Below are positions 2,011 through 37,385 of a stretch of DNA of 37,385 nt, piece after piece. Below the pieces are notes generated by a model. It saw only the letters and a list, made by a program, of their open reading frames with translations. It made no database searches and was not told the DNA's origin. This DNA is from a virus (lineage: Duplodnaviria; Heunggongvirae; Uroviricota; Caudoviricetes). Numbering within the stretch: the first letter of the stretch is position 1; each line of letters begins with the position of its first letter. Position numbers and translations under genes: made by a program. The stretch lies in the IMG/VR virus record IMGVR_UViG_2651869691_000008; one strand, written 5' to 3'.

Positions 2011-2151
2011 TTACTGCTTACACTGTAAGAACGCCGCAAACTCCGCTCCCCAGAAGCTCATCCGTATTTCACACAGCGAACCGTGTAGCATCCAGATGAT
2101 GAGGATTACCGTCACGCAGAACGTGATGGCCGTAAGCGATTTTTGCGACAT
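2011..2151 (-). CDS. Hok/Gef-family type I toxin (46 aa, single TM helix)
   Basis: minus-strand ORF MSQKSLTAITFCVTVILIIWMLHGSLCEIRMSFWGAEFAAFLQCKQ, not in the ORF track because <60 aa; AAGGAG RBS 8 nt upstream; SLCEIR and E.AAF motifs typical of Hok; 3' hairpin GACGGGGGATTGCTCCCCCGTC at 1979-2000 and terminator at 1891-1931. Confidence 0.6.
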   Translation of the reverse strand: MSQKSLTAITFCVTVILIIWMLHGSLCEIRMSFWGAEFAAFLQCKQ

Positions 2152-2342: not shown

Positions 2343-2603
2343 TTAATTCTGAGGTAAAGGCAAACTCATCTGATTGTTTCCCCTGTGTGAAGCTGGCAGC
2401 TCATGCCACGGGATACCTTCTGAAGAGTGAACGCCGGAGGTGTGTTTTGATGTGAATTTATGGAAAGCTTCCAGTGTTGAGAAGCATACGCCGCATTCCA
2501 GGTTGTTACACTGGTAATACTTTTGCCGCACGGTGTTTGAATCATTTTCCGGACGACTGGTGCGGATACGGGCAGATGCGCCACAAAGCGGACAACGGAA
2601 CAT
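2343..2603 (-). CDS. ogr: Ogr/Delta-family zinc-finger late-gene transcriptional activator
   Basis: MFRCPLCGASARIRTSR...YYQCNNLECGVCF four-Cys motif as in P2 Ogr; AAGGGAGG RBS; its 3' coding end overlaps DNA paralogous to the hok leader. Confidence 0.8.
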   Translation of the reverse strand: MFRCPLCGASARIRTSRPENDSNTVRQKYYQCNNLECGVCFSTLEAFHKFTSKHTSGVHSSEGIPWHELPASHRGNNQMSLPLPQN

Positions 2604-25643: not shown

Positions 25644-25670
25644 AAACGCCCAGGAAGAGGGCGTTTTGGC
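25644..25670. terminator. bidirectional hairpin terminator closing the minus-strand cargo operon
   Basis: AAACGCCC-AGGAAGAG-GGGCGTTTT with T-runs on both strands. Confidence 0.5.
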
Positions 25671-25676
25671 TTATTT

Positions 25677-25937
25677 CTATAGCTTTGATGCAGGCTGGGC
25701 CAGATGCAAGGGTTGGACATACCAGCCTTTTGATAACCAACTCTCTGCAACCTCTTTACTCCTTGTTATTGCTGGTATTCCGATGCCGTTATTTACATGC
25801 ATCCATGCTACTGGCTCTGCTTCCAGTGATGCCAGTGCAATTTCATAAGCACGGCGCTCAATATTGTCTCGAACGTCCAAGCTGCCTATGCGCTCTTTGA
25901 TTTCTTTAATCAGTTCTTTGTCGGTGAAAGTTGTCAT
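25677..25937 (-). CDS. hypothetical protein (cargo operon gene 4)
   Basis: 86-aa ORF, GAGGA RBS, 3 nt after the upstream gene stop. Confidence 0.55.
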   Translation of the reverse strand: MTTFTDKELIKEIKERIGSLDVRDNIERRAYEIALASLEAEPVAWMHVNNGIGIPAITRSKEVAESWLSKGWYVQPLHLAQPASKL

Positions 25938-25940
25938 GTG

Positions 25941-26228
25941 TTAGTCCTCATCCACTTCAACGCCATCTTTCAGCGTGATGCCGTGCCAATCATCAGCCCA
26001 ACTGGTTAGCCCTGGCGCATCAATGCTAGGCATATAAACGCTTGCAGTGTGGTAGCCCTTATCGTTATCAATGCTGGCAACGTGCTCGCCGTTGTATGCG
26101 CTCAGCGTGTCCAGGACGCTATAAAACTTTCCTCCGGCTGCCCTGAAATCCTTTACAGCCTTCACAAGGCGATTCCACGCTTTTTCCTGTTCTGGCGTCA
26201 GGTCGATTAATTCCTGCAAAGTTGCCAT
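25941..26228 (-). CDS. hypothetical acidic protein (cargo operon gene 3)
   Basis: start refined to ATG at 26228 (AAGGAG RBS); MATLQELIDLTPEQEKAWNRL... Confidence 0.55.
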   Translation of the reverse strand: MATLQELIDLTPEQEKAWNRLVKAVKDFRAAGGKFYSVLDTLSAYNGEHVASIDNDKGYHTASVYMPSIDAPGLTSWADDWHGITLKDGVEVDED

Positions 26229-26229
26229 A

Positions 26230-26544
26230 TCACTCTCCTTTGATGTCAATGTTTACAGCTTGGCAAGCCTCTTTGAGCACCCAGTCAACAGCGTCTTTCC
26301 ATGCTCCGGTTTCGGTTGGCGGATTCTCACGTTTTACCAGTTCATAGAAACGTACTGCTCTAACCAGTCCATCTGACGGTTTTGCCTGTAGTACAGCCTG
26401 AGCTATACGGTATGCCTGGAGCATACGGGCGTCGTTGATATCCATTCCGAACGGAATTTCTGATGATCGTGATTCTGCATCTTCAAGCCTGGCAATTTCT
26501 TTACGTAAAAAGTATTTCAACTCTTGTTTTTGTTTTCTGTTCAT
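26230..26544 (-). CDS. hypothetical protein (cargo operon gene 2)
   Basis: 104-aa ORF; start ATG overlaps the upstream stop (ATGA). Confidence 0.55.
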
Positions 26545-26873
26545 GTGTTTTTTCCCTTTTTGTCTGCCACTTCTCTCCTGATAATTTCATTGCACAAATC
26601 CACGCACTCATTGCAGATGTAAACAGACGGTCCAGCAATCACCTTTGTGACTTCGTACTGGGATTTATTGCAGAAGCTGCAATAAATCGTTTCCTCGCCT
26701 GAAGTCCATGTTTTGCTGGTTTCGCCAGACATCAGTTGTTTGAGGTCTTTTTCACGACGAAGAACTATCTGGCCACATTCAGCTATTTTTTGGATGTTGA
26801 CATTTTCTTCTTTCGCCAGCGCTTCCATCCGCTCAATCAGTCGCTGCGCTTTTTCTCTGTCAATGTGTTGCAT
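26541..26873 (-). CDS. ClpX N-terminal zinc-binding-domain-like protein (stand-alone ZBD with N-terminal helical extension)
   Basis: C-terminal ...[41 protein letters not shown] closely matches the ClpX N-domain ([37 protein letters not shown] as I recall it); no AAA+ module. Confidence 0.7.
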
Positions 26874-26936
26874 TGTGTCCCCTTTGTTTGTGTTCCCGGA
26901 TTAAAGTCATCAGGGCGGATGCGCCCTGATGTTGTA

Positions 26937-27248
26937 TTATTCGGGAAATAACGCCCGGATATTTCCGGCCATCTGACTGGTTATCTGTGCGGTTGATACT
27001 GGCTGTGATGCGGGGCGTTCTGTCCTGGTTTGTGTCACTGATAACGCTTCATCATCAGCCCATGCAGCCAGTCGGTAAGCCTCTGCCGGATTCATTTTCA
27101 GAAGTGCCAGCCCGGCCAGAAAAGCCACACGTTGGCCGCTTTTGCGGGCTTCTGGTGTAAGGCTGTCCAGCCAGGCGCATGCTTCGCCTTCGTTCTTGAC
27201 GGCGGCGGGCTTCAGATAGAAACTTATTCGTCTGGTTGGTGTCGTCAT
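26937..27248 (-). CDS. ParR-like DNA-binding partner protein
   Basis: ATG at 27248 (AAGGAG RBS), 4 nt after the ParM-like stop; N-terminal RRISFYLKP...LDSLTPEARKSGQRVAFLAGLAL and C-terminal NIRALFPE resemble plasmid R1 ParR as I recall it. Confidence 0.55.
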   Translation of the reverse strand: MTTPTRRISFYLKPAAVKNEGEACAWLDSLTPEARKSGQRVAFLAGLALLKMNPAEAYRLAAWADDEALSVTQTRTERPASQPVSTAQITSQMAGNIRALFPE

Positions 27249-27252
27249 TGGT

Positions 27253-28212
27253 TTACTCCTTGTCCATTGCGTACAGCCCATTAACCAGAGCAAACTGTGG
27301 CACCCCGTCCGCGATGAAAGTCGCATTAACTCCGCAGGCTTCGCGGATAGCGGGTGCCACAATCTCCGCCCCGCCACCGACAACCATCACCCGCCCGTAA
27401 CCCGAAAAACCCGCCAGCGCGCGGATCACGCGTTGTTTCAGTGTTTCTTCCTTTTCACGAATAACCGCCATCAGGCTGGCGTAATGCGCGTCATTGTGGA
27501 TGTGCTGGCGCAGCCAGGCTTCATCATGGCGATGTTCGATAATGGTATTGGCGATGTGGTGACTGGTGCGCATACCGTTAGTGGCCATCACCGACAGTAC
27601 GGCATCGGCCATCAGAGAAACGCCTACGTGTGGGTCGCAAAACACCTGGCTGATACCTGCCAGTTGCCCCTGAACCTTTGCCACATCCAGCGTGGTTCCG
27701 CCCAAATCCACAATCAGCAGGGATTCAAACGGACTCATGTCAGCCAGTGCCTTAAAGCCAGCCGGAATGGATTCAGGCATAACCCGCACGTTACGGATAG
27801 TGAATGCTTCGCCGTTCTGGTACTCCACCGGGCGCATAACGTTCGCTTTTTTGCGGTTGATGTTGGGCATGTCCGGCTGTGCGTTTGTGTCGAAATATTC
27901 GCTCAGTGGCAGGGTGACAACCACATCCACTTCCTGTGGTGTGATGCCTGATTTGACCAGCGCGTGATGAATGGCAATGACATTCACATCGCTGTACTGG
28001 TATTGCGTGTCGGTCGTCTGGACAAAGCGATCGCTGACCGGATCAAAACCATAGCGCACGCCATCAAGCATGTAGTTCGCGGGCTGCGTGCCACCGAACG
28101 GCGCAGACCATTCCGACTTGAAGCTGTTCGGGCTGATGGCGTTGCGGCGTTCGCCGTTCTCAGTCCATGCCAGCTTGATGTTGGTGGAGCCGTCATCGAT
28201 ACAAATTTTCAT
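27253..28212 (-). CDS. ParM/StbA-family actin-like ATPase
   Basis: MKICIDDGSTNIKLAW...ISPNSF...YSDVNVIAIHHAL...MPESIPAG...LIVDLGGTTLDV...VMVVGGGAEI; strong resemblance to plasmid R1 ParM throughout. Confidence 0.85.
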   Translation of the reverse strand: MKICIDDGSTNIKLAWTENGERRNAISPNSFKSEWSAPFGGTQPANYMLDGVRYGFDPVSDRFVQTTDTQYQYSDVNVIAIHHALVKSGITPQEVDVVVTLPLSEYFDTNAQPDMPNINRKKANVMRPVEYQNGEAFTIRNVRVMPESIPAGFKALADMSPFESLLIVDLGGTTLDVAKVQGQLAGISQVFCDPHVGVSLMADAVLSVMATNGMRTSHHIANTIIEHRHDEAWLRQHIHNDAHYASLMAVIREKEETLKQRVIRALAGFSGYGRVMVVGGGAEIVAPAIREACGVNATFIADGVPQFALVNGLYAMDKE

Positions 28213-28246
28213 GTCGCTTTTCCTTATGTTGATTAATTAATCGTTT

Positions 28247-28339
28247 ACGGGATTCTGAAATCCCGTTTTTGCCTGTTTTATGCGCGCTTCATATATCGCG
28301 GCGCGTTTTTTGCTCATTTACGGGATTTGTGAATCCCGT
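28247..28339. repeat. two ~39-bp direct repeats each containing an 8-bp-arm palindrome (ACGGGATT-N4-AATCCCGT), 73 bp apart
   Basis: palindromes at 28247-28266 and 28320-28339; one in the A/parM intergenic region, one inside the last codons of A; candidate operator or centromere-like sites. Confidence 0.6.
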
Positions 28340-31111
28340 TTCTGTCTGTTTTTTGTTTCCACTGGTCAGGCCACCCCGCAGCAGGTCTGCTTTGCGGTGG
28401 GCGCGTTCAGTGGTTTCACTGATTCTCTGTGCGTGCTCTGCGTCGCGGATGGCGCGCAGCATGTCAGAAAGCACGGTAACGGGTGTTTTCATGGTGTTCT
28501 GGTCTTGCTGAAGTGTGGATGCCAGGCGTGCGGCGGCTTCGGGGTCTGATGCCCCCAGCTGTTCCAGATAGCTGGCGACCGGGTTATGGCGGATCTCCGT
28601 GCTGCTTACGCCGTGGTTACGGCTCAGGCGCTGCCAGAGCTGCGTGATCCGGCTGTCCGGTCGGGTATCCGGTTTGCGTACAATTTCAAATCCCTGCGGT
28701 GCAATGATGCTGCCGTCAACGTACAGACTGCCGCCCCGTAACAGGTGCTGCATCTGCTGTTCACCGATATGCAGGCCGAGAGATTCAGCAGACTCCCGCC
28801 ATTCTTTAGCGAGTAATTCGTGGTTATCAGGCAAAGGCCGCTGCTGTTTGCGGCTCTGTGTCCAGCTCTGCATTTCATCACGGCTGTTTTTTGCCTGTTT
28901 GTCACGAAGCGAACGCATCAGCGCCCGGCGTTCGTGCCGTTTCAGTGAGCGCATCCATTCGTTCACTTCAACGCCGTCAGGGAGCTGCGGCCACGGTGCT
29001 GGCCGTTCTTCCGGCTGTTCTGTCCCGTTGTTGTCTGTTTCCTGTACACGGGGACAGTTATTGCCACGAGTCCAAGGGGCGGCAGGGCCGCCCTGAAGGT
29101 CAAAACCATTTTCGCGGGCGCTGTCTTCCGCTTCCGGTTTGCGTCTTACCAGCTTCCAGTTATCCGGATGCGTGCACACACGGGAGGATTCCCCGATGAG
29201 TGGTGACCAGATCCCGTAAATCTGTACGCTCTGTTCGCCGTAATCGTTCAGCTCATCGGCGAGGTCGTAGGCGGTGCGAATCAGGTAGTCTTTGCGTGGA
29301 ACAAGTACGCCGCCCTGTTTCTCAATGTAGGTGGCAAAACATCCGGCATCAGCGGCAGCAAGAACCGCATCCATTGCGTCATCCTTCAGCCGTTGCGGGC
29401 CTTCCGGGTTGCGTGCCATCTGGCTGGCAAGGCGACGCAGTTCACGCCACACCTGACGGGAGGGGATGCCAAAGAACTGGAACTGGCGGACCCGGTGAAG
29501 GCGCGCCCAGCCAATGGCGCGTTCCACGCTCTCGGTCATTGATTTTCCGGTTTCGTGGTCAACGCGTGGTTTGCCTGTTTTCGGGTCGATGCCATCCACG
29601 GCGCGGCTGTCCAGGTTTTTTCCGATGTAGGTGGCGATGTAGCTGGTTGGCGTGCCTTTTGAGCCGTCGACATACTCCGCCTTAAAGCGCGGAGTAATAT
29701 CATCGCCCAGCTCGTGACGATCTTCCTGAATGGCAATATCGCGGGTGTGGGACACAATGGTGTCGATTTCTTCCGGATGAGCAAAGACCATCATATGCCA
29801 GTGCACGGTGCCGTCATGGTGAGGCTCCACCGTGCGGATGCCATACCAGCGCAGGCCGTCGCGGTTCAGTTTCTTGCGGACCGCCGCAAAAAACGTGTTA
29901 ACCAGGTAATCGCTGGAGTCGCGCATGGTGGCCCCGTTCCATTTGGGATTCGGATGACCGTTCTCTGTTGTAGCGTGGTATTTTGACGGGCAGGTGACAG
30001 TCAGAAACACCGCTTTGTCGCCACGGGCTTCGGCCAGAAGTTCCAGCCCCTTCATGGTGGCCATCATTTCTGCCTTACGGTGAACCGGGTTACTTACTCC
30101 CGCGTAATACACTGTCTTGAGATCAATCGTGAACCCGTCTTCGTTTTCCAGCATGAAACTTTTCAGGAAATCGCGTGTTTTCTCGCGCTGTGCGCGAAAC
30201 TCGCTTAACGCGTCCTGGCTCAGATAGGGCGATGTTTTTCTGGAAACCAGACAGGCGGCGCGGAGTTGTTCTTCTCTCCACTCGCAACGTAACAGCCACA
30301 GTTTGCGTTTCCACCATTCCGCACAGGTCAGGCGAAGGATTGCGCCCGGCAGCAGCTCCGTGTCCGGTTCGTTCCTCCGGTCTTTGTCTGTTGTCAGTGC
30401 GTCATAATGTGGAGGCATGGCGTGCAGGTGTAACGCCATGCGGGCCAGCATCTGATACGCCTTCAGCGTTACATCCATGGTCAGTTCGCCATCGGTCGCG
30501 CCAAAGCCATCGCAGAGTTTTTCGAAGGTGCTGCTGAACATCGCCGCCGTCATGGTGGCCAGCGTCTGTATCTGGTGTTTGTTGAGCTGCGGCAGGTAAA
30601 GCAAATCGTCCAGGCGTTCGCGTCCGGCAAGGGAGCGATAACCCTGTGTCAGCCAGCGGTGATCGGTGCGCTCCAGACGTTCGAATATTTTGCGCAGGTT
30701 TCCGCGCGCGTAGCGTTCAGCCTGCCAGCTCTTTTTGCCTTTCTGACGATCGGCTTCCTGTTTTTTGCGCAGGAAGGAGAGGTGGCGAATAAGCGGATCG
30801 CGCAGATAGGACGGCAGCAGGCGCAGCGAGGCCATGGCTTCATCCACCGCACCGCGTGCCTGTTTTCTGGCGTCTCCTGCCAGTGTGATGGTTTTGTCCT
30901 GTTTTTCCTGTGCGTCCAGGCTTTTATTAATCAGGTTGCCCAGCGGCGTTGCGGAGAACGCCGCATCAGCCATTTCCTGGCGGCGCTCGTTCTCTACCCG
31001 GTAGGCATCCAGCCAGGAGGAAAGCGCGGATTCAGGAGCGGGGATCCCCGTTCCTTCACGCCCCACTGCGTGGCGCGGTTGTTGCCAGTCCCTGATGTAC
31101 TCTGCCGTCAT
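28289..31111 (-). CDS. rolling-circle replication initiation protein (P2 gpA-like)
   Basis: 940 aa; DGTVHWHMMVF and YIATYIGKN motifs of the phiX174 A / P2 A family; longer than I expect for P2 A. Confidence 0.9.
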   Translation of the reverse strand: MTAEYIRDWQQPRHAVGREGTGIPAPESALSSWLDAYRVENERRQEMADAAFSATPLGNLINKSLDAQEKQDKTITLAGDARKQARGAVDEAMASLRLLPSYLRDPLIRHLSFLRKKQEADRQKGKKSWQAERYARGNLRKIFERLERTDHRWLTQGYRSLAGRERLDDLLYLPQLNKHQIQTLATMTAAMFSSTFEKLCDGFGATDGELTMDVTLKAYQMLARMALHLHAMPPHYDALTTDKDRRNEPDTELLPGAILRLTCAEWWKRKLWLLRCEWREEQLRAACLVSRKTSPYLSQDALSEFRAQREKTRDFLKSFMLENEDGFTIDLKTVYYAGVSNPVHRKAEMMATMKGLELLAEARGDKAVFLTVTCPSKYHATTENGHPNPKWNGATMRDSSDYLVNTFFAAVRKKLNRDGLRWYGIRTVEPHHDGTVHWHMMVFAHPEEIDTIVSHTRDIAIQEDRHELGDDITPRFKAEYVDGSKGTPTSYIATYIGKNLDSRAVDGIDPKTGKPRVDHETGKSMTESVERAIGWARLHRVRQFQFFGIPSRQVWRELRRLASQMARNPEGPQRLKDDAMDAVLAAADAGCFATYIEKQGGVLVPRKDYLIRTAYDLADELNDYGEQSVQIYGIWSPLIGESSRVCTHPDNWKLVRRKPEAEDSARENGFDLQGGPAAPWTRGNNCPRVQETDNNGTEQPEERPAPWPQLPDGVEVNEWMRSLKRHERRALMRSLRDKQAKNSRDEMQSWTQSRKQQRPLPDNHELLAKEWRESAESLGLHIGEQQMQHLLRGGSLYVDGSIIAPQGFEIVRKPDTRPDSRITQLWQRLSRNHGVSSTEIRHNPVASYLEQLGASDPEAAARLASTLQQDQNTMKTPVTVLSDMLRAIRDAEHAQRISETTERAHRKADLLRGGLTSGNKKQTETGFTNPVNEQKTRRDI

Positions 31112-31117
31112 AGTGAT

Positions 31118-31483
31118 TTACTTCGTCATGCCATTCAGGGTGTCGCGGCAGGCTGTAGCCAGCCGCTGAATTTCCAGCACGGTGTCTTCTGTGTCGGCAT
31201 GGCGATGTGTGATGCGGATGCTGTCGGCAATCACATCGACGATTGCAGAGGATGGGCGCTGGTAAATGCCAATAACGGACGGGGTGCCACCTTCAATGCG
31301 GTAAAGCCTGTAATTTCCCTCGTGGCTGTCAATCATGTAGCGACCATCAATAACAATCTTTCCGTCAGCGAGCTGCGGTACAGGCAGGGATTTCTGGTAC
31401 ATGTCATAACGATCACGCACGCGAGCGGCAAGATCACGTTCTGTGTTGAGCAGGTATTCAAGAAAGTCGTTGGCGAGAATCAT
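31118..31483 (-). CDS. hypothetical early-operon protein
   Basis: 121-aa ORF immediately upstream of A in the same orientation. Confidence 0.5.
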   Translation of the reverse strand: MILANDFLEYLLNTERDLAARVRDRYDMYQKSLPVPQLADGKIVIDGRYMIDSHEGNYRLYRIEGGTPSVIGIYQRPSSAIVDVIADSIRITHRHADTEDTVLEIQRLATACRDTLNGMTK

Positions 31484-31555
31484 TGCGGCAATCCTCTTGT
31501 TACAGATGTGCGAAGGCCTCCCGCCGCAAGGTGCAGGAAAGGCCCGGAACAGGAA

Positions 31556-31786
31556 TTAATGGAGTTTGTTTTGCTGCTGGATGAGCTGTTGAAGCTCGTG
31601 CAGATCATCCGCCAGATAGCTGAAAACAGAGGCGGAATAAATGTTTGATAGTGCGTGGCTGCGCTCATGCAGCATATTGATGTGCATGATTTGCGCGACG
31701 CGTGATGCGCGGGAAAGTCTGCGGTTGATTTCAGTCTGGATGTGACGACGCTCCGCGATAGCGCGGTGTGGTTTGCGGTTTGCCAT
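31556..31786 (-). CDS. hypothetical early-operon protein (basic, 76 aa)
   Basis: ORF with plausible coding composition; no recognisable family. Confidence 0.4.
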   Translation of the reverse strand: MANRKPHRAIAERRHIQTEINRRLSRASRVAQIMHINMLHERSHALSNIYSASVFSYLADDLHELQQLIQQQNKLH

Positions 31787-32108
31787 GGTGTGGCCCCTTG
31801 TGTAGTAAGTTGTGAAAACTCACCATCCAGAGCTGCGAAACTGTGGGTGGCGAGACGTACGAGGTTCGCAGTACCGGCTACACAAGAACCCGGCCCGACC
31901 GAAGTCGGCCCCGTACGCCCCGCCATAATTCTGACGCGAAAAAAACGTGGCAATACAGTACGCACAAAAAAACCGCTGGCGCGGTTGTGCGCTTGTGTAG
32001 TCAGCAGGCTGCGAAACCCGACACCCGTTTTGTGAGGTGCAGCGGAAATGTAACCTGACTGATTGCGGCATGGCAAGCGGTTTTTTTGTGTGTGCATGTT
32101 CTGGTTTC

Positions 32109-32408
32109 TTACTGGTTCAGAAAAAAATCAAAAACCTTGTCAATGCGTTGCAGCAGCTCTTGCTGTATTGCTTCCGGTGTTTCCGGTTCGCCTGGCGCCT
32201 TCAACGTCGCGCAGAAATCAGCGATTTCATGATGGAGCGTCAGGCGAATGGCAGGAGCCGTGGTTCTGGCGTGCTCCAGCTCATCCAGCAGTGCCAGCAC
32301 GGCAGACGGCGAGAGCATTGCGCGAAATGCCAGTAATTTTTGAGGCGTTGCCATTCGTTGCAGGGCAAATGCCAGTTCGCGTAGCTTCTGGTGGTTGATG
32401 GTGCTCAT
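32109..32408 (-). CDS. hypothetical early-operon protein
   Basis: 99-aa ORF; stop overlaps the start of the next gene. Confidence 0.5.
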   Translation of the reverse strand: MSTINHQKLRELAFALQRMATPQKLLAFRAMLSPSAVLALLDELEHARTTAPAIRLTLHHEIADFCATLKAPGEPETPEAIQQELLQRIDKVFDFFLNQ

Positions 32409-32671
32409 GTTCTGGCTTCCTTCAGTAGCTGGTTAAACATGTGAGTAAGTGGATTGCTACACCCGAACGGCATCGGGTTTACGTGGTAAGAAGCCTGGCC
32501 TCCAGTTTTGCGAGCGCGACCACCTGTGCTGCGGTTTGTTCTGATGACTAAGCCGCTGCGCCAAAGTCGGCGTAACTCAGCATTAATAGCTGTGGTTGGG
32601 GTGTTCAGTGCTGCGGCGATTTCTCCGCCGCTACAACCCGGATGTGTAGTGATGTAGTCCAGAATGGTCAT
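32405..32671 (-). CDS. probable winged-helix DNA-binding protein
   Basis: 88 aa; ...SGGEIAAALNTPTTAINAELRRLWRSGLV... helix-turn-helix-like segment. Confidence 0.45.
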   Translation of the reverse strand: MTILDYITTHPGCSGGEIAAALNTPTTAINAELRRLWRSGLVIRTNRSTGGRARKTGGQASYHVNPMPFGCSNPLTHMFNQLLKEART

Positions 32672-32871
32672 TTGCGTGGCTCCTGTACCTGTCGGATAAG
32701 ATTCACCCGCGCCACGTTGGTGGCGCAGAAGTAAGTGCCGTCAGTGAGGTAGATGTGGTGTGCATCCTTTTCCGAACGATGTTTGTCGATAGTGGTAATC
32801 AGGCGTTCGTCGACCTCGTATTCGCGCCCTCTGGAGGTAAAGCGAATGATGGGAAAATGCTTAATTGCCAT
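32668..32871 (-). CDS. hypothetical early-operon protein
   Basis: 67-aa ORF, overlapping-stop arrangement with neighbours. Confidence 0.4.
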   Translation of the reverse strand: MAIKHFPIIRFTSRGREYEVDERLITTIDKHRSEKDAHHIYLTDGTYFCATNVARVNLIRQVQEPRK

Positions 32872-32894
32872 TGCGCCCCCTTTGTCCAGTAACC

Positions 32895-33311
32895 CTATGC
32901 GTGAAATACGGCACGTTGCGTGTCATCAATGAATACAGCTTGAGAGCGTTCTATCAGGCGGAGATTTGTCAGAAGCTCTGACTCTTTTGTGTGGTAAGGC
33001 GTTATCAGGTAGTTGCCGTGCAGTTCGGCAATAATGGTGTATTGCGTCATTATTGCCGAACCAAGAATGTAAATGCGGCGTCCAATGCTGGACGGATTCA
33101 TGGCTGCAACTGTTGACTGTGTTTTAAGAGTGTCGATTTCTTTGCCCTGTTCCTCAATAATTTTGGCTGCTTCAGAGGTGGCTATTGCGATGGTCAGTGC
33201 GTAAAGCGCTGCCATATGTTGATTATCTTTCTGGGCTGCCCTGGACAGCTTGTCTTGCTCTGCTGACACTATTTTTAATGTATTGATAATATTTTTTTCT
33301 TTTGCGTTCAT
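32895..33311 (-). CDS. hypothetical protein (AT-rich)
   Basis: 138-aa ORF in an AT-rich segment. Confidence 0.45.
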   Translation of the reverse strand: MNAKEKNIINTLKIVSAEQDKLSRAAQKDNQHMAALYALTIAIATSEAAKIIEEQGKEIDTLKTQSTVAAMNPSSIGRRIYILGSAIMTQYTIIAELHGNYLITPYHTKESELLTNLRLIERSQAVFIDDTQRAVFHA

Positions 33312-33403
33312 TTTATATCTCCGTTATTTACGTGTGCGAATACCTCCGCGAATGCGGATAGTTTTCAGGTTTTCGGGTTTAATCTGGTGTTTTGTTTAAG
33401 CTA

Positions 33404-33517
33404 TTATTTGTCAGTGAAAAAGCGTTCAATCTTTTTTACTGAATGAATAATTCGCATAATCCCAATGGCGCAGGCCACCGAAATAATCAGAACAAGCCAT
33501 GAGATAAATATACTCAT
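33404..33517 (-). CDS. 37-aa hydrophobic peptide (single predicted TM helix, basic C-terminus)
   Basis: MSIFISWLVLIISVACAIGIMRIIHSVKKIERFFTDK; ATG overlaps the stop of the upstream 80-aa ORF (ATGA); GGGGAA RBS; not in the ORF track because <60 aa. Confidence 0.35.
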   Translation of the reverse strand: MSIFISWLVLIISVACAIGIMRIIHSVKKIERFFTDK

Positions 33518-33756
33518 GCGATATTCCCCAGCTTATACGGTTCAATGTGTTCCCCGCATTCTGCGGCACAGATCAGCTCGGAAAGTTCGTTCAGTGCATC
33601 CAGATCATCAGCGTAAAAAGCAACGTCATACAAACTCCGGATTGCCCTGGTCAATGAGTCACGGGCTGCATGTTCAGCATGAGCGCCTGATGCACTTAAG
33701 CGAAAATAAAATCGTTCAAGTGCTTTGTTAATGAGAGTTTTATATTCTTTGCCCAT
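33514..33756 (-). CDS. hypothetical early-operon protein
   Basis: 80-aa ORF. Confidence 0.45.
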   Translation of the reverse strand: MGKEYKTLINKALERFYFRLSASGAHAEHAARDSLTRAIRSLYDVAFYADDLDALNELSELICAAECGEHIEPYKLGNIA

Positions 33757-33767
33757 CGCAACGCCCT

Positions 33768-34046
33768 TTAATCTGCTTTCTGAATTTCAGCTTCTGAATC
33801 CATACAAATAATTTCGATATAGGGTTCATCGCCATTAACCTGACGTGCCTTTTCAGCTTCGCTAATGATTTCTCGTACGGTCTGGTACGGAAGCTCCACA
33901 GTCAGGCGCGTACCGTTCAGATAAACGTAAGTAGCTGCGTTTTTTTCGGATGGAACAACTCCGTCAATGGCTGATGCGCGTAATAACAGTTCACCGCGAA
34001 AATCAATAAAACGGATAAATACACCTTGTGCATGCTCTTTGGTCAT
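33768..34046 (-). CDS. hypothetical early-operon protein
   Basis: start refined to ATG at 34046 (AGGTG RBS) within the 33768-34106 ORF. Confidence 0.45.
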   Translation of the reverse strand: MTKEHAQGVFIRFIDFRGELLLRASAIDGVVPSEKNAATYVYLNGTRLTVELPYQTVREIISEAEKARQVNGDEPYIEIICMDSEAEIQKAD

Positions 34047-34056
34047 AAAGCACCTG

Positions 34057-34407
34057 TTATAAATCAGCCTGTTTAATAAAACTTTGCCCGCGAAGCAGAC
34101 GATCAACCGTGCGAAGTGCTTCGTATAATGTGAAATCCTGCCCGAAGTGATTGTCGCCGCAGTTCAATGCAAAAATGCGGTTTCCGGTAAACGGATTGCG
34201 TGGGCATTTGTGGACCACGATTCCAGCTTTCTCAATCAGCCAGGCATGCTCGCCGATTTGTTTTACAGCGTGGCCATCCGGTGTTGCGTGCGTCTCGTTC
34301 AGGTTATAGCGACTGTTACTACGTGATGCACTGGTAGCGACGTGGTGTACATGGCGTTCTACGCCATTACGAAATTTGGAGTATGGATTATTAGCGTTTT
34401 TTTTCAT
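34057..34407 (-). CDS. hypothetical early-operon protein
   Basis: 116-aa ORF after the Cox-like gene. Confidence 0.5.
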   Translation of the reverse strand: MKKNANNPYSKFRNGVERHVHHVATSASRSNSRYNLNETHATPDGHAVKQIGEHAWLIEKAGIVVHKCPRNPFTGNRIFALNCGDNHFGQDFTLYEALRTVDRLLRGQSFIKQADL

Positions 34408-34428
34408 GATGGTGCTCTGTTCATTGTT

Positions 34429-34632
34429 TTAGCTGTTAGCCAAAGCGTCTTTTAACATCGCCACAAGGTTTACTTCAGGCTTTTCCATTTTGGCGCGTTT
34501 GGGGCGGATAATAATTCGACCGTCAGCCAACATCTTTTTGCATGTATTAAGAGGGATACCTGTTATCTCTGCATATTTCTGCAGGGATACATAGGGGGCA
34601 TTCACATTGATATTGATGGTTATACCTGACAT
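34429..34632 (-). CDS. Cox/excisionase-like HTH DNA-binding protein
   Basis: 67 aa; YVSLQKYAEITGIPLNTCKKMLADGRIII resembles the HTH of P2 Cox / AlpA-type excisionases; AGGAGG RBS. Confidence 0.55.
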   Translation of the reverse strand: MSGITININVNAPYVSLQKYAEITGIPLNTCKKMLADGRIIIRPKRAKMEKPEVNLVAMLKDALANS

Positions 34633-34915: not shown

Positions 34916-34930
34916 TGTCAAGGTTTTTGT

Positions 34931-36383: not shown

Positions 36384-37385
36384 ATGTCGGTTCGTAAGAT
36401 TCCATCAGGTAAATGGCTTTGCGAATGTTATCCCTACGGGGCATCGGGAAAACGCATACGTAAACAGTTTGCGACAAAAAGTGAGGCGCTCTCTTATGAG
36501 CGCCGTTTAATGAATAGTAGAGTTGGAGACGAGTTTCAAGATGGTTCTGGTCCTCGTCTTTCTGAGTTGATTGCTCGTTGGTTTGAGATGTACGGTAAAA
36601 CCTTGTCCTCTGGTGCAGAGCGCAAAGTCAAACTTGAGGCGATTTGTTCCAGGCTGGGAGATCCATTTGCTTCTCAGTTTGACAAAAATATGTTTGCTAC
36701 TTATCGGGAAAGAAGGCTATCTGGAGAATGGAATCCCAAGGGGAAGAAAAAACTTAGTGAAGCAACCGTTAATCGCGAGCAGTCATATCTACATGCTGTT
36801 TTTGCCGAACTGAAGCGCCTTGGGGAGTGGTCTGGTGAAAACCCCCTGACTGGTATTCGCAAGTTTCGTGAGGAAGAAAAGGAACTGGCGTTTCTGTATG
36901 TAGATGAGATTGAGCGCCTTCTGATTGCGTGTGATGAGTCACGGAATAAAGATTTGGGGGTTGTTGTCCGTATTGGGCTTGCGACGGGTGCTCGGTGGAG
37001 TGAAGCAGAAGGATTAAAGCAATCTCAAGTACTGCCCGGTCGAATCACATTTGTTAAAACTAAAGGAAAGAAGAACCGCACTGTACCGATTTCACCTCAA
37101 TTGCAGGCTATGCTTCCTAAAAAACGAGGAGCGCTATTTTCACCATGTTATGAGGCTTTTGACGCTGCAATTAAGAGAGCGAAGATCGAGCTTCCTGATG
37201 GGCAATTAACTCATGTGCTACGTCACACGTTTGCCAGTCATTTTATGATGCGGGGCGGAAATATTCTTGTGTTGCAAAAAATACTGGGGCATAGCGATAT
37301 AAAAATGACTATGCGTTATGCGCATTTTGCTCCAGGTCATTTAGAGGCTGCTGTTGAATTGAACCCTTTTGACAATAGAGGGTAA
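36384..37385 (+). CDS. int: tyrosine integrase (P2 Int-like)
   Basis: 333 aa; C-terminal ...HVLRHTFASHFMMRGGNILVLQKILGHSDIKMTMRYAHF catalytic R-H-R-Y region; stop at the window edge. Confidence 0.9.
   Translation: MSVRKIPSGKWLCECYPYGASGKRIRKQFATKSEALSYERRLMNSRVGDEFQDGSGPRLSELIARWFEMYGKTLSSGAERKVKLEAICSRLGDPFASQFDKNMFATYRERRLSGEWNPKGKKKLSEATVNREQSYLHAVFAELKRLGEWSGENPLTGIRKFREEEKELAFLYVDEIERLLIACDESRNKDLGVVVRIGLATGARWSEAEGLKQSQVLPGRITFVKTKGKKNRTVPISPQLQAMLPKKRGALFSPCYEAFDAAIKRAKIELPDGQLTHVLRHTFASHFMMRGGNILVLQKILGHSDIKMTMRYAHFAPGHLEAAVELNPFDNRG

Follow-up and report, generated by a model that had tools for sequence, protein, structure and literature searches.

Why should a temperate phage that inserts itself into the host chromosome carry a DNA segregation cassette of the kind used by plasmids? 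The question is posed by a prophage in a 37,385-nucleotide stretch of viral DNA (IMG/VR record IMGVR_UViG_2651869691_000008), analyzed at its full length and called here the window. Directly behind the phage replication gene A lie parM and parR, two genes resembling those of the partition system of plasmid R1, preceded by a pair of palindromic repeats. That they form a type II ParM/ParR partition cassette is hardly in doubt. A more cautious judgment applies to its activity: we put at roughly 55% the probability that this is a complete and functional ParMRC cassette, near-core in P88-like and related P2-like temperate phages, that acts as proposed below. Its target is most likely circular phage DNA during the time that DNA spends outside the chromosome. 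The features concerned are as follows.

27253–28212, minus strand: parM, 319 aa, actin-fold ATPase with Pfam and R1 ParM structure matches
26937–27248, minus strand: parR, 103 aa, candidate centromere-binding adaptor (Pfam PF10784)
28241–28282, minus strand: proximal 42-nt repeat, candidate parC, with a palindrome at 28247–28266; in the gap between gene A and parM
28314–28355, minus strand: distal 42-nt repeat, candidate parC, with a palindrome at 28320–28339; in the last codons of gene A
26908–26931, no strand assigned: GC-rich hairpin with a 10-bp stem, directly 3' of parR; right-hand boundary of the cassette
28289–31111, minus strand: gene A, replication nickase of 940 aa (Phage_GPA, E = 4.7e-131), directly upstream of the cassette

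The open reading frames of the window place gene A, a 76-nt gap, parM, 4 nt, and parR in that order on the minus strand. The initial annotation had likened the product of parM to R1 ParM over its whole length and that of the small gene 4 nt downstream to ParR, and both assignments held when profiles were compared. In a Pfam scan, the N-terminal half of ParM matched StbA_N (PF06406, E = 6e-82) and its C-terminal domain matched PF21523 (E = 1.3e-68), while structures of plasmid R1 ParM (1mwk) matched residues 2–316 (E = 9e-93). Global identity to R1 ParM is 46%. The nucleotide-binding motifs (DDGSTNIK at residue 6, MPESIPAG at 145, DLGGTTLD at 169, and GGGAE at 279) are all present, and all four occupy positions equivalent to those in R1 ParM. 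The gene is under strong purifying selection, stronger than that on gene A, with a dN/dS of 0.078 over 108 distinct alleles vs. 0.135. Gene A is required for P2-type replication. At loci where gene A falls to 85% identity, ParM keeps 97–99.7%.

The parR start codon lies at 27248, 4 nt past the parM stop, and its product belongs to PF10784 (Plasmid_stab_B, the StbB/ParR family; E = 1.6e-24, 85.9 bits against a cut-off of 25). It also matches PHROG 2515, "partition protein" (E = 1e-58); the scores of ParM and ParR alike are far above the curated family thresholds. Fifty-seven distinct ParR variants were found, falling into several allelic classes (at least two), with ~84–100% and 52–57% identity to the window copy. 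The N-terminal segment PTRRISFYLKP is nearly invariant among them, with Y for F in one of the 57, and RRISFYLKP is strictly invariant in one alignment (A1). The helices are conserved, residues ~67–92 form a hypervariable linker, and the C-terminal end, NI(R/Q)xLFPE, is again conserved, the C-terminal peptide having a low dN. In agreement with this division, dN/dS is 0.13 in the N-terminal domain vs. 0.65 in the linker. Such a pattern fits a protein with a putative DNA-binding end and a putative ParM-binding end on a loose tether. An AlphaFold model of the monomer, built from a 17-sequence alignment, is of low confidence (pLDDT 58); it contains helices at residues 20–29, 32–52, 54–61, and 86–100, leaves residues 63–84 disordered, and has no N-terminal strand. 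The ParR sequence returned no solved ParR structure from a search of all PDB chains, even at E = 1. As a separate observation, the match of many E. coli copies to the window extends only from position 27194 (approximately codon 18 of parR) toward parM. This is a recombination breakpoint just past the invariant N-terminal segment, and the ParR classes are joined to nearly identical ParM proteins.

Upstream of parM, the two direct repeats are 81% identical and 73 bp apart. Each holds a perfect palindrome, ACGGGATT-N4-AATCCCGT (8-N4-8), and reaches 17 nt past it; the proximal palindrome ends 34 nt ahead of the parM start codon. The initial annotation had located both palindromes correctly and had placed the second repeat inside the 3' end of gene A, which the gene A stop at 28289 bears out; the repeat unit itself measures 42 nt. 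No third site was found in the window, even with two mismatches allowed, and the pattern is improbable by chance (expected count 0.02; two matches in 0 of 100 shuffles). An exact-match scan found the palindrome in at least 120 IMG/VR loci. Among the 120 matches listed, parM was detectable beside the palindrome in 109, and all but 5 adjoin parM or gene A on the same contig. In 106 distinct upstream sequences, the 73-bp spacing is retained, the loops are CACA/CACG and TCAG/TAAA, and 105 have unchanged inner GGGA/TCCC bases. The outer positions of the palindrome arms show one-sided changes, and none of the 106 variants contains a genuine compensatory change, the sole double change belonging to a row with an unrelated sequence at the distal site. 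This pattern favors a putative protein-binding DNA site over an RNA stem, although weakly, in a region that is 93–98% conserved throughout. The inner bases also persist at greater distances: a Hafnia relative has GGGATT-N4-AATCCC at both sites despite a diverged spacer, and relatives with 54–63% ParM identity have GGGA-type sites, mostly inverted, near −120 and −50 from the parM start. No GGGA-type site was found in the three plasmid parC regions examined.

The limits of the cassette were evident from loci in which its surroundings change. In one IMG/VR locus (L051), the upstream replication gene differs (30% identity) and homology to the window starts at the first base of the distal repeat, so that the final ~22 codons of gene A (stop at 28289) fall within the DNA common to L051 and the cassette. 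In a second IMG/VR locus (L071), homology starts just ahead of the distal palindrome. At the other end, nucleotide matches to related phages end at query positions 112–145, corresponding to 26911–26944 in the window, at the hairpin past parR. With its left boundary at the repeat and its right boundary at the hairpin, the mobile unit therefore consists of the repeats, parM, parR, and the hairpin, and variable cargo starts only beyond this hairpin. Judged by these boundaries, the repeats appear to behave as a cis part of the cassette that travels with parM and parR.

The initial annotation had suggested that the repeats serve as both operator and centromere. The part of this proposal that concerns a centromere accords with their joint movement with parMR and with the retained GGGA/TCCC bases; the part that concerns an operator found less to build on, as no promoter of the cassette's own was seen. 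In a consensus scan, no sigma-70-like promoter was detected in 26800–28600 at the scan threshold, and no promoter-like site was found within 400 nt upstream of parM or between or beside the repeats; an R1-style self-regulated promoter is therefore not evident. A relaxed scan gave at best 8 of 12 matches, at a site overlapping the parM start codon. The best early-promoter candidate, at 34921–34893 on the minus strand, faces away from a repressor-like gene, and a search for LexA boxes gave one chance-level match, inside gene A. Because the cassette lies directly behind gene A and has no promoter of its own, its products probably appear only during expression of the lytic or early genes. From the gene order and the scan, parMR would be transcribed with gene A from lytic-cycle promoters and be silent in the repressed prophage. 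Two Rfam matches lie farther upstream in the same transcriptional direction: C4 antisense RNA (83 bits; 31843–31930, minus strand) and isrK Hfq-binding RNA (62 bits; 31966–32040, minus strand), each with a promoter-like site (31953 and 32076) and a terminator-like hairpin, and both directly upstream of gene A and of a "derepression protein" gene (31556–31786). This arrangement suggests P1-type antisense control of an anti-repressor, and perhaps of A-parMR expression. At the far end of the minus-strand early array, a hairpin at 25644–25666 resembles a two-way intrinsic terminator, with an 8-bp stem and T-rich tails on both strands; it sits between the end of the array (25677) and the end of the convergent portal gene (25185).

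A type II partition system had been described in the initial annotation as unexpected on an integrating P2-like phage, a view that a survey of complete E. coli genomes overturned. Copies of the 1.4-kb module occur at 1455 places in 1307 of the 5426 genomes (24%), and 1453 of these copies are chromosomal; the degraded P2-like prophage of O157:H7 also carries it. Nor is the module new or rare. RefSeq names its products "plasmid segregation protein ParM" and "plasmid partitioning/stability family protein," its families are PHROGs 691 and 2515, and related phage records (P88, Citrobacter phage phiSM, and others) already annotate ParM and a partition protein. The par region is 98% identical to that of Escherichia phage P88 and 94.6–98.2% identical to those of PhiR44_2, Citrobacter phage phiSM, and others. 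In print, Rousset et al. (2022; PMC9122126) surveyed the interval from gene A to the portal gene, a P2 hotspot for defense and other cargo; they found a putative partition system in about a quarter of P2-like phages, raised the idea that such phages are "maintained as plasmids," and list StbA and Plasmid_stab_B arrangements in their tables. A paper on bacterial genome-encoded ParMs (PMC12270681) mentions neither phages nor E. coli. The cassette is thus already common, annotated, catalogued, and noted in print. Our additions are incremental: a phage-specific lineage, the boundaries of the cassette, a minimal two-palindrome site overlapping gene A, a compact ParR, the lack of a dedicated promoter in the consensus scan, and the presence of hok on the same prophage.

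The lineage is defined by comparison with plasmids and other phages. Homologues of ParM occur in more than 5000 plasmids, none with above 52% identity, and every phage copy has at least 95%. This type of ParR was found in 7 records among the 72,556 plasmids of PLSDB, all of them P88-like phage copies; some lie in very large "plasmid" records and one is a free 34.5-kb circle. Among 50,697 phage records, ParM matches were confined to P88-like phages and the P1-like phage D6 (48%), with no match in other phage groups at E ≤ 1e-5. Beyond the P88 group, the nearest relatives (54–63% identity) are those of Plesiomonas, Hafnia, Serratia, and Enterobacter. All those examined occupy the interval from gene A to the portal gene in a P2-like prophage, and in each, parM is followed by a PF10784 ParR of 116–134 aa; the same position is occupied in P2-like prophages of five genera. 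From these identities and positions, the cassette is an old, phage-specific branch of the R1-type family, long tied to one peduovirus position, rather than a recent capture from a plasmid. Within the group, both genes are intact at 63 of the 71 loci anchored on gene A.

A contig search with ParM as the single query returned three near-identical loci only, one of them in an assembly labeled as the Gram-positive Vagococcus. This copy (NZ_JBQPOM010000071.1, "Vagococcus sp. WN89Y") lies on a 226-kb contig, and its gene A, parM, and parR are 85%, 98%, and 93% identical to those of the E. coli prophage. Contamination of the assembly with enterobacterial DNA is the most likely explanation.

Set beside the ParMRC systems of plasmids R1, IncF, and IncI, the phage locus has the same order of repeats, parM, and parR, and its ParM aligns over the full length, with the R1 identity given above, up to 52% identity to other plasmid proteins, and all nucleotide-binding motifs. 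Its ParR shares a Pfam family with the IncI, IncFII, and IncFIC proteins, along with an N-terminal motif of the form R-[RK]-x-[ST]-F-x-[ILF]-x-P and a C-terminal peptide N-[IA]-x-x-[LM]-F (also written N-x-x-x-[LM]-F). The differences lie in size and in the cis site. Phage ParR has 103 aa, whereas plasmid ParRs have 124–140, and ~30 central residues are absent. In place of approximately ten direct iterons, the phage has two 20-bp palindromes 73 bp apart, the distal of which overlaps the end of a replication gene. All three plasmid loci inspected have a TATAAT or GATAAT hexamer within short direct iterons; the phage locus has none in the consensus scan. P88 and Citrobacter phage phiSM are 98% identical to the window at the nucleotide level from parR through parM to the end of gene A, where the neighboring genes are also shared, and P88 and its relatives differ only in the cargo downstream of parR.

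Two experimentally studied systems offer the closest parallels in integrated elements. SrpMRC of the SXT/R391 elements is a ParM-type locus in a normally integrated element, with an adaptor that binds to repeats ahead of the gene for the ATPase. The locus is switched on only together with the genes for excision and transfer, and it stabilizes the transient circular form (PMC4489591). The SXT/R391 elements are conjugative, however, SrpM is distant from R1 ParM, and SrpR has no recognizable domain; plasmid stabilization by SrpMRC was shown by experiment, whereas for the phage cassette it is a prediction. AlpAC/alpS, from prophage CGP3 of Corynebacterium glutamicum, pairs an actin-like filament former with a DNA-binding adaptor that binds upstream of the operon (PMC4446434, PMC5539076). 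It is induced early and acts on circular phage DNA, and experiments showed that AlpAC is needed for efficient phage DNA replication (PMC4446434). It differs in belonging to another actin-like family (window ParM scores 23.8 bits against Pfam ALP_N, below the threshold of 26.3) and in its Gram-positive host, large prophage, and gene order, the operon having been published as alpAC. D6 is likewise a tailed temperate phage with a StbA/ParM homologue but is a 91-kb, P1-like phage, whereas the element in the window encodes an integrase and sits in the chromosome. D6 lives as a plasmid. A phage-plasmid of the P1, N15, SSU5, or D6 type would be extrachromosomal, with a plasmid replicon and without integration; the element studied here is integrated next to tRNA-Leu, encodes an integrase, and has relatives that are chromosomal in nearly every E. 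coli genome surveyed.

These comparisons lead to the following proposal. ParR dimers would bind the two palindromes upstream of parM through the N-terminal strand RRISFYLKP of a predicted ribbon-helix-helix fold, and the C-terminal helix, NIRALFPE, would capture the ends of ATP-bound ParM filaments. Insertional growth of a filament between two ParR-bound DNA circles would then push the circles apart, as in R1. Both genes would be expressed after infection or induction, at a stage when the phage DNA circle is free and undergoing replication, and the cassette would be silent in the quiescent integrated prophage. The classical description of P2-type replication is that it yields monomeric circles; since expression would coincide with this replication, the free circular phage genome is the likely substrate. 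Phage copies would in this way spread through the cell or reach both daughter cells; replication could improve with better-spaced templates, or loss of the free element before integration or packaging could be prevented. The conserved cis sites, together with the conserved DNA-binding strand predicted in ParR, point to action on the phage's own DNA. The analysis shows what the proteins are, how the repeats and the cassette are built, how far they are conserved, the selection on them, and where they occur; we infer ParR binding to the repeats, the action of filaments, when the genes are expressed, and how the phage profits; our account of when, and on what, the cassette acts has about even odds. 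The version of it that amounts to a lytic-cycle device is less likely than not: ParM filaments, anchored by ParR at the two palindromes, would separate and position the monomeric circles arising from rolling-circle replication, in the infected cell or across a division before the choice between lysis and lysogeny is fixed.

Several points weigh against this proposal. It is not obvious why DNA should be partitioned by a phage whose host dies within a single cycle, and no experiment on this module was found in the literature searched. Two palindromes provide four half-sites only, where plasmid parC has about ten iterons, and a full R1-type ParR ring may therefore not form. Among close relatives, the palindrome arms are 0.95–0.985 conserved, barely above the flanks at 0.93–0.98, a comparison of little power because the whole region is 93–98% conserved. 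With regard to expression, the promoter scan was a simple consensus search that could miss a weak or non-sigma-70 promoter, and weak candidates are present on the minus strand at 29817, 31953, and 32076.

Persistence over many generations in the form of a low-copy plasmid prophage, such as might arise where every attachment site is occupied, is unlikely as an alternative. This is the role proposed by Rousset et al. (PMC9122126), and it draws on a complete P88-like genome recorded as a circular 34.5-kb "plasmid" (NZ_CP148288.1), on a hok/gef killer gene in the same prophage, and on the ParM homologue (48% identity) of the phage-plasmid D6. The single circular record, however, could be excised, replicating DNA caught by the assembler, and phages 99.9% identical to it over its positions 30000–34461 are integrated in other strains. 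Only 2 of the 1455 copies found in complete E. coli genomes lie off the chromosome, and the window copy is integrated next to tRNA-Leu with an intact integrase gene. No plasmid-type replicon was noted, the only replication gene being that for the rolling-circle nickase, gene A; parMR lies behind it without a promoter of its own, and both would be off under prophage repression. Stabilization of an episomal form, one of the roles offered in the initial annotation, is for these reasons unlikely to be the main one: the copies are chromosomal, and parMR and gene A apparently depend on upstream lytic-cycle promoters. The circular record itself, from an E. coli isolated from a cat, is 34,461 bp long and contains the integrase, hok, parMR, and the structural genes.

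A different objection concerns the palindromes, which might be RNA hairpins in the A-parM transcript, acting in its processing or stability, or terminators of antisense transcription, with the true ParR site elsewhere. Both are terminator-like on the plus strand, where a hairpin is followed by a T-rich tail, and the common proximal variants (A to G at 28266 and C to T at 28249) would retain pairing, as G-U, in the sense transcript. The commonest distal variant (T to C at 28333, in 31 of 106 sequences), by contrast, breaks a pair, and genuine compensatory changes are lacking among the 106. Base identity, beyond pairing, is kept in the inner GGGA/TCCC, in Hafnia as well, the repeat extends past the palindrome by 17 nt, and there is no plus-strand gene placed to need a terminator. 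We regard this reading as quite unlikely; it is in any case compatible with the proposed partition function. Very unlikely is a role as accessory cargo that helps the host or the prophage against competitors, by which the cassette would destabilize resident plasmids with related ParM/ParR or exclude other phages. Its position in the hotspot between gene A and the portal gene (PMC9122126) is in keeping with such a role, as is the resemblance of the ParR tail, NIRALFPE, to those of IncF and IncI ParRs (NIKNLFPDDE and NAKGLF), which makes cross-binding to plasmid ParM conceivable. Yet ParM, ParR, and the ClpX-zinc-finger protein encoded next to them match no PADLOC defense model, the cassette is near-core for this type of gene A (63 of 71 loci) with variable cargo confined to the far side of the hairpin, and no promoter was found for expression in the lysogen. 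Conservation extends to its own cis sites and to the predicted DNA-binding strand of ParR, and the plasmid parC regions have no GGGA-type sites. As a rarer alternative, the plasmid-like C-terminal peptide of ParR may also interfere with the ParM of resident IncF/IncI plasmids. Finally, the cassette might be a decaying, functionless relic of an old recombination between plasmid and phage. Some copies are indeed truncated or missing (8 of the 71 gene A-anchored loci), and fragments occur among the protein matches. Against decay stand the dN/dS of parM, below that of gene A, the near-identity of ParM at loci where gene A has diverged, and the common position in five genera; the selection data come close to refuting this reading, which is scarcely credible.

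The element is an integrated, P88-like P2-like prophage (Xuanwuvirus, Peduoviridae) adjoining tRNA-Leu. The window opens with the host genes pgsA, tRNA-Gly, tRNA-Cys, and tRNA-Leu (701–1002), continues into the prophage, and ends with an intact tyrosine integrase gene (36384–37385). Its proteins include matches to Phage_GPA (E = 4.7e-131), Ogr_Delta (E = 5e-14), and integrase domains, and its open reading frames are collinear with the structural genes of P88; portal, terminase, and capsid were assigned from the equivalent positions annotated in P88 and NZ_CP148288.1, rather than from the scan of the window. A 46-aa Hok/Gef toxin gene (2011–2151, minus strand; PF01848, 30.1 bits against a cut-off of 22) adjoins the Ogr/Delta gene (2343–2603, minus strand), and hok is found at 1291–1431 in NZ_CP148288.1. 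No Sok RNA was matched at the Rfam gathering threshold. The two stability loci of plasmid R1 are parA (equivalent to parMRC) and parB (hok/sok); the prophage would carry homologues of both.

Past the par cassette, the first gene (26541–26873, minus strand) encodes a 110-aa protein with only the N-terminal C4 zinc finger of ClpX (PF06689, E = 8e-18, residues 64–99) and without the ATPase domain. Its label in P88, "carboxylate--amine ligase," looks like a misnomer, and the protein could mimic or block the binding of ClpX substrates or adaptors. Beyond it, three small overlapping open reading frames (104, 102, and 86 aa; 25677–26544, minus strand) have no Pfam family, and one gives a weak match to PADLOC PDC-M28C (E = 0.0047). 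This segment is the variable cargo part of the hotspot.

As a database finding, the cassette is ordinary. About a quarter of E. coli genomes, O157:H7 included, carry it in a chromosomal prophage. If the proposal is correct, an integrating phage with a plasmid-type actin motor would extend the cases of SrpMRC and AlpAC to a very common group of enteric phages and would show how temperate elements escape loss in the interval that starts with excision or infection and lasts until they integrate or are packaged. A 103-aa ParR and a two-palindrome site would constitute a minimal centromere, and would bear on how few ParR dimers can hold a ParM filament. Should the cassette work during the lytic cycle, it would be a small-phage counterpart of the AlpAC system of CGP3 and of the tubulin spindles of jumbo phages.

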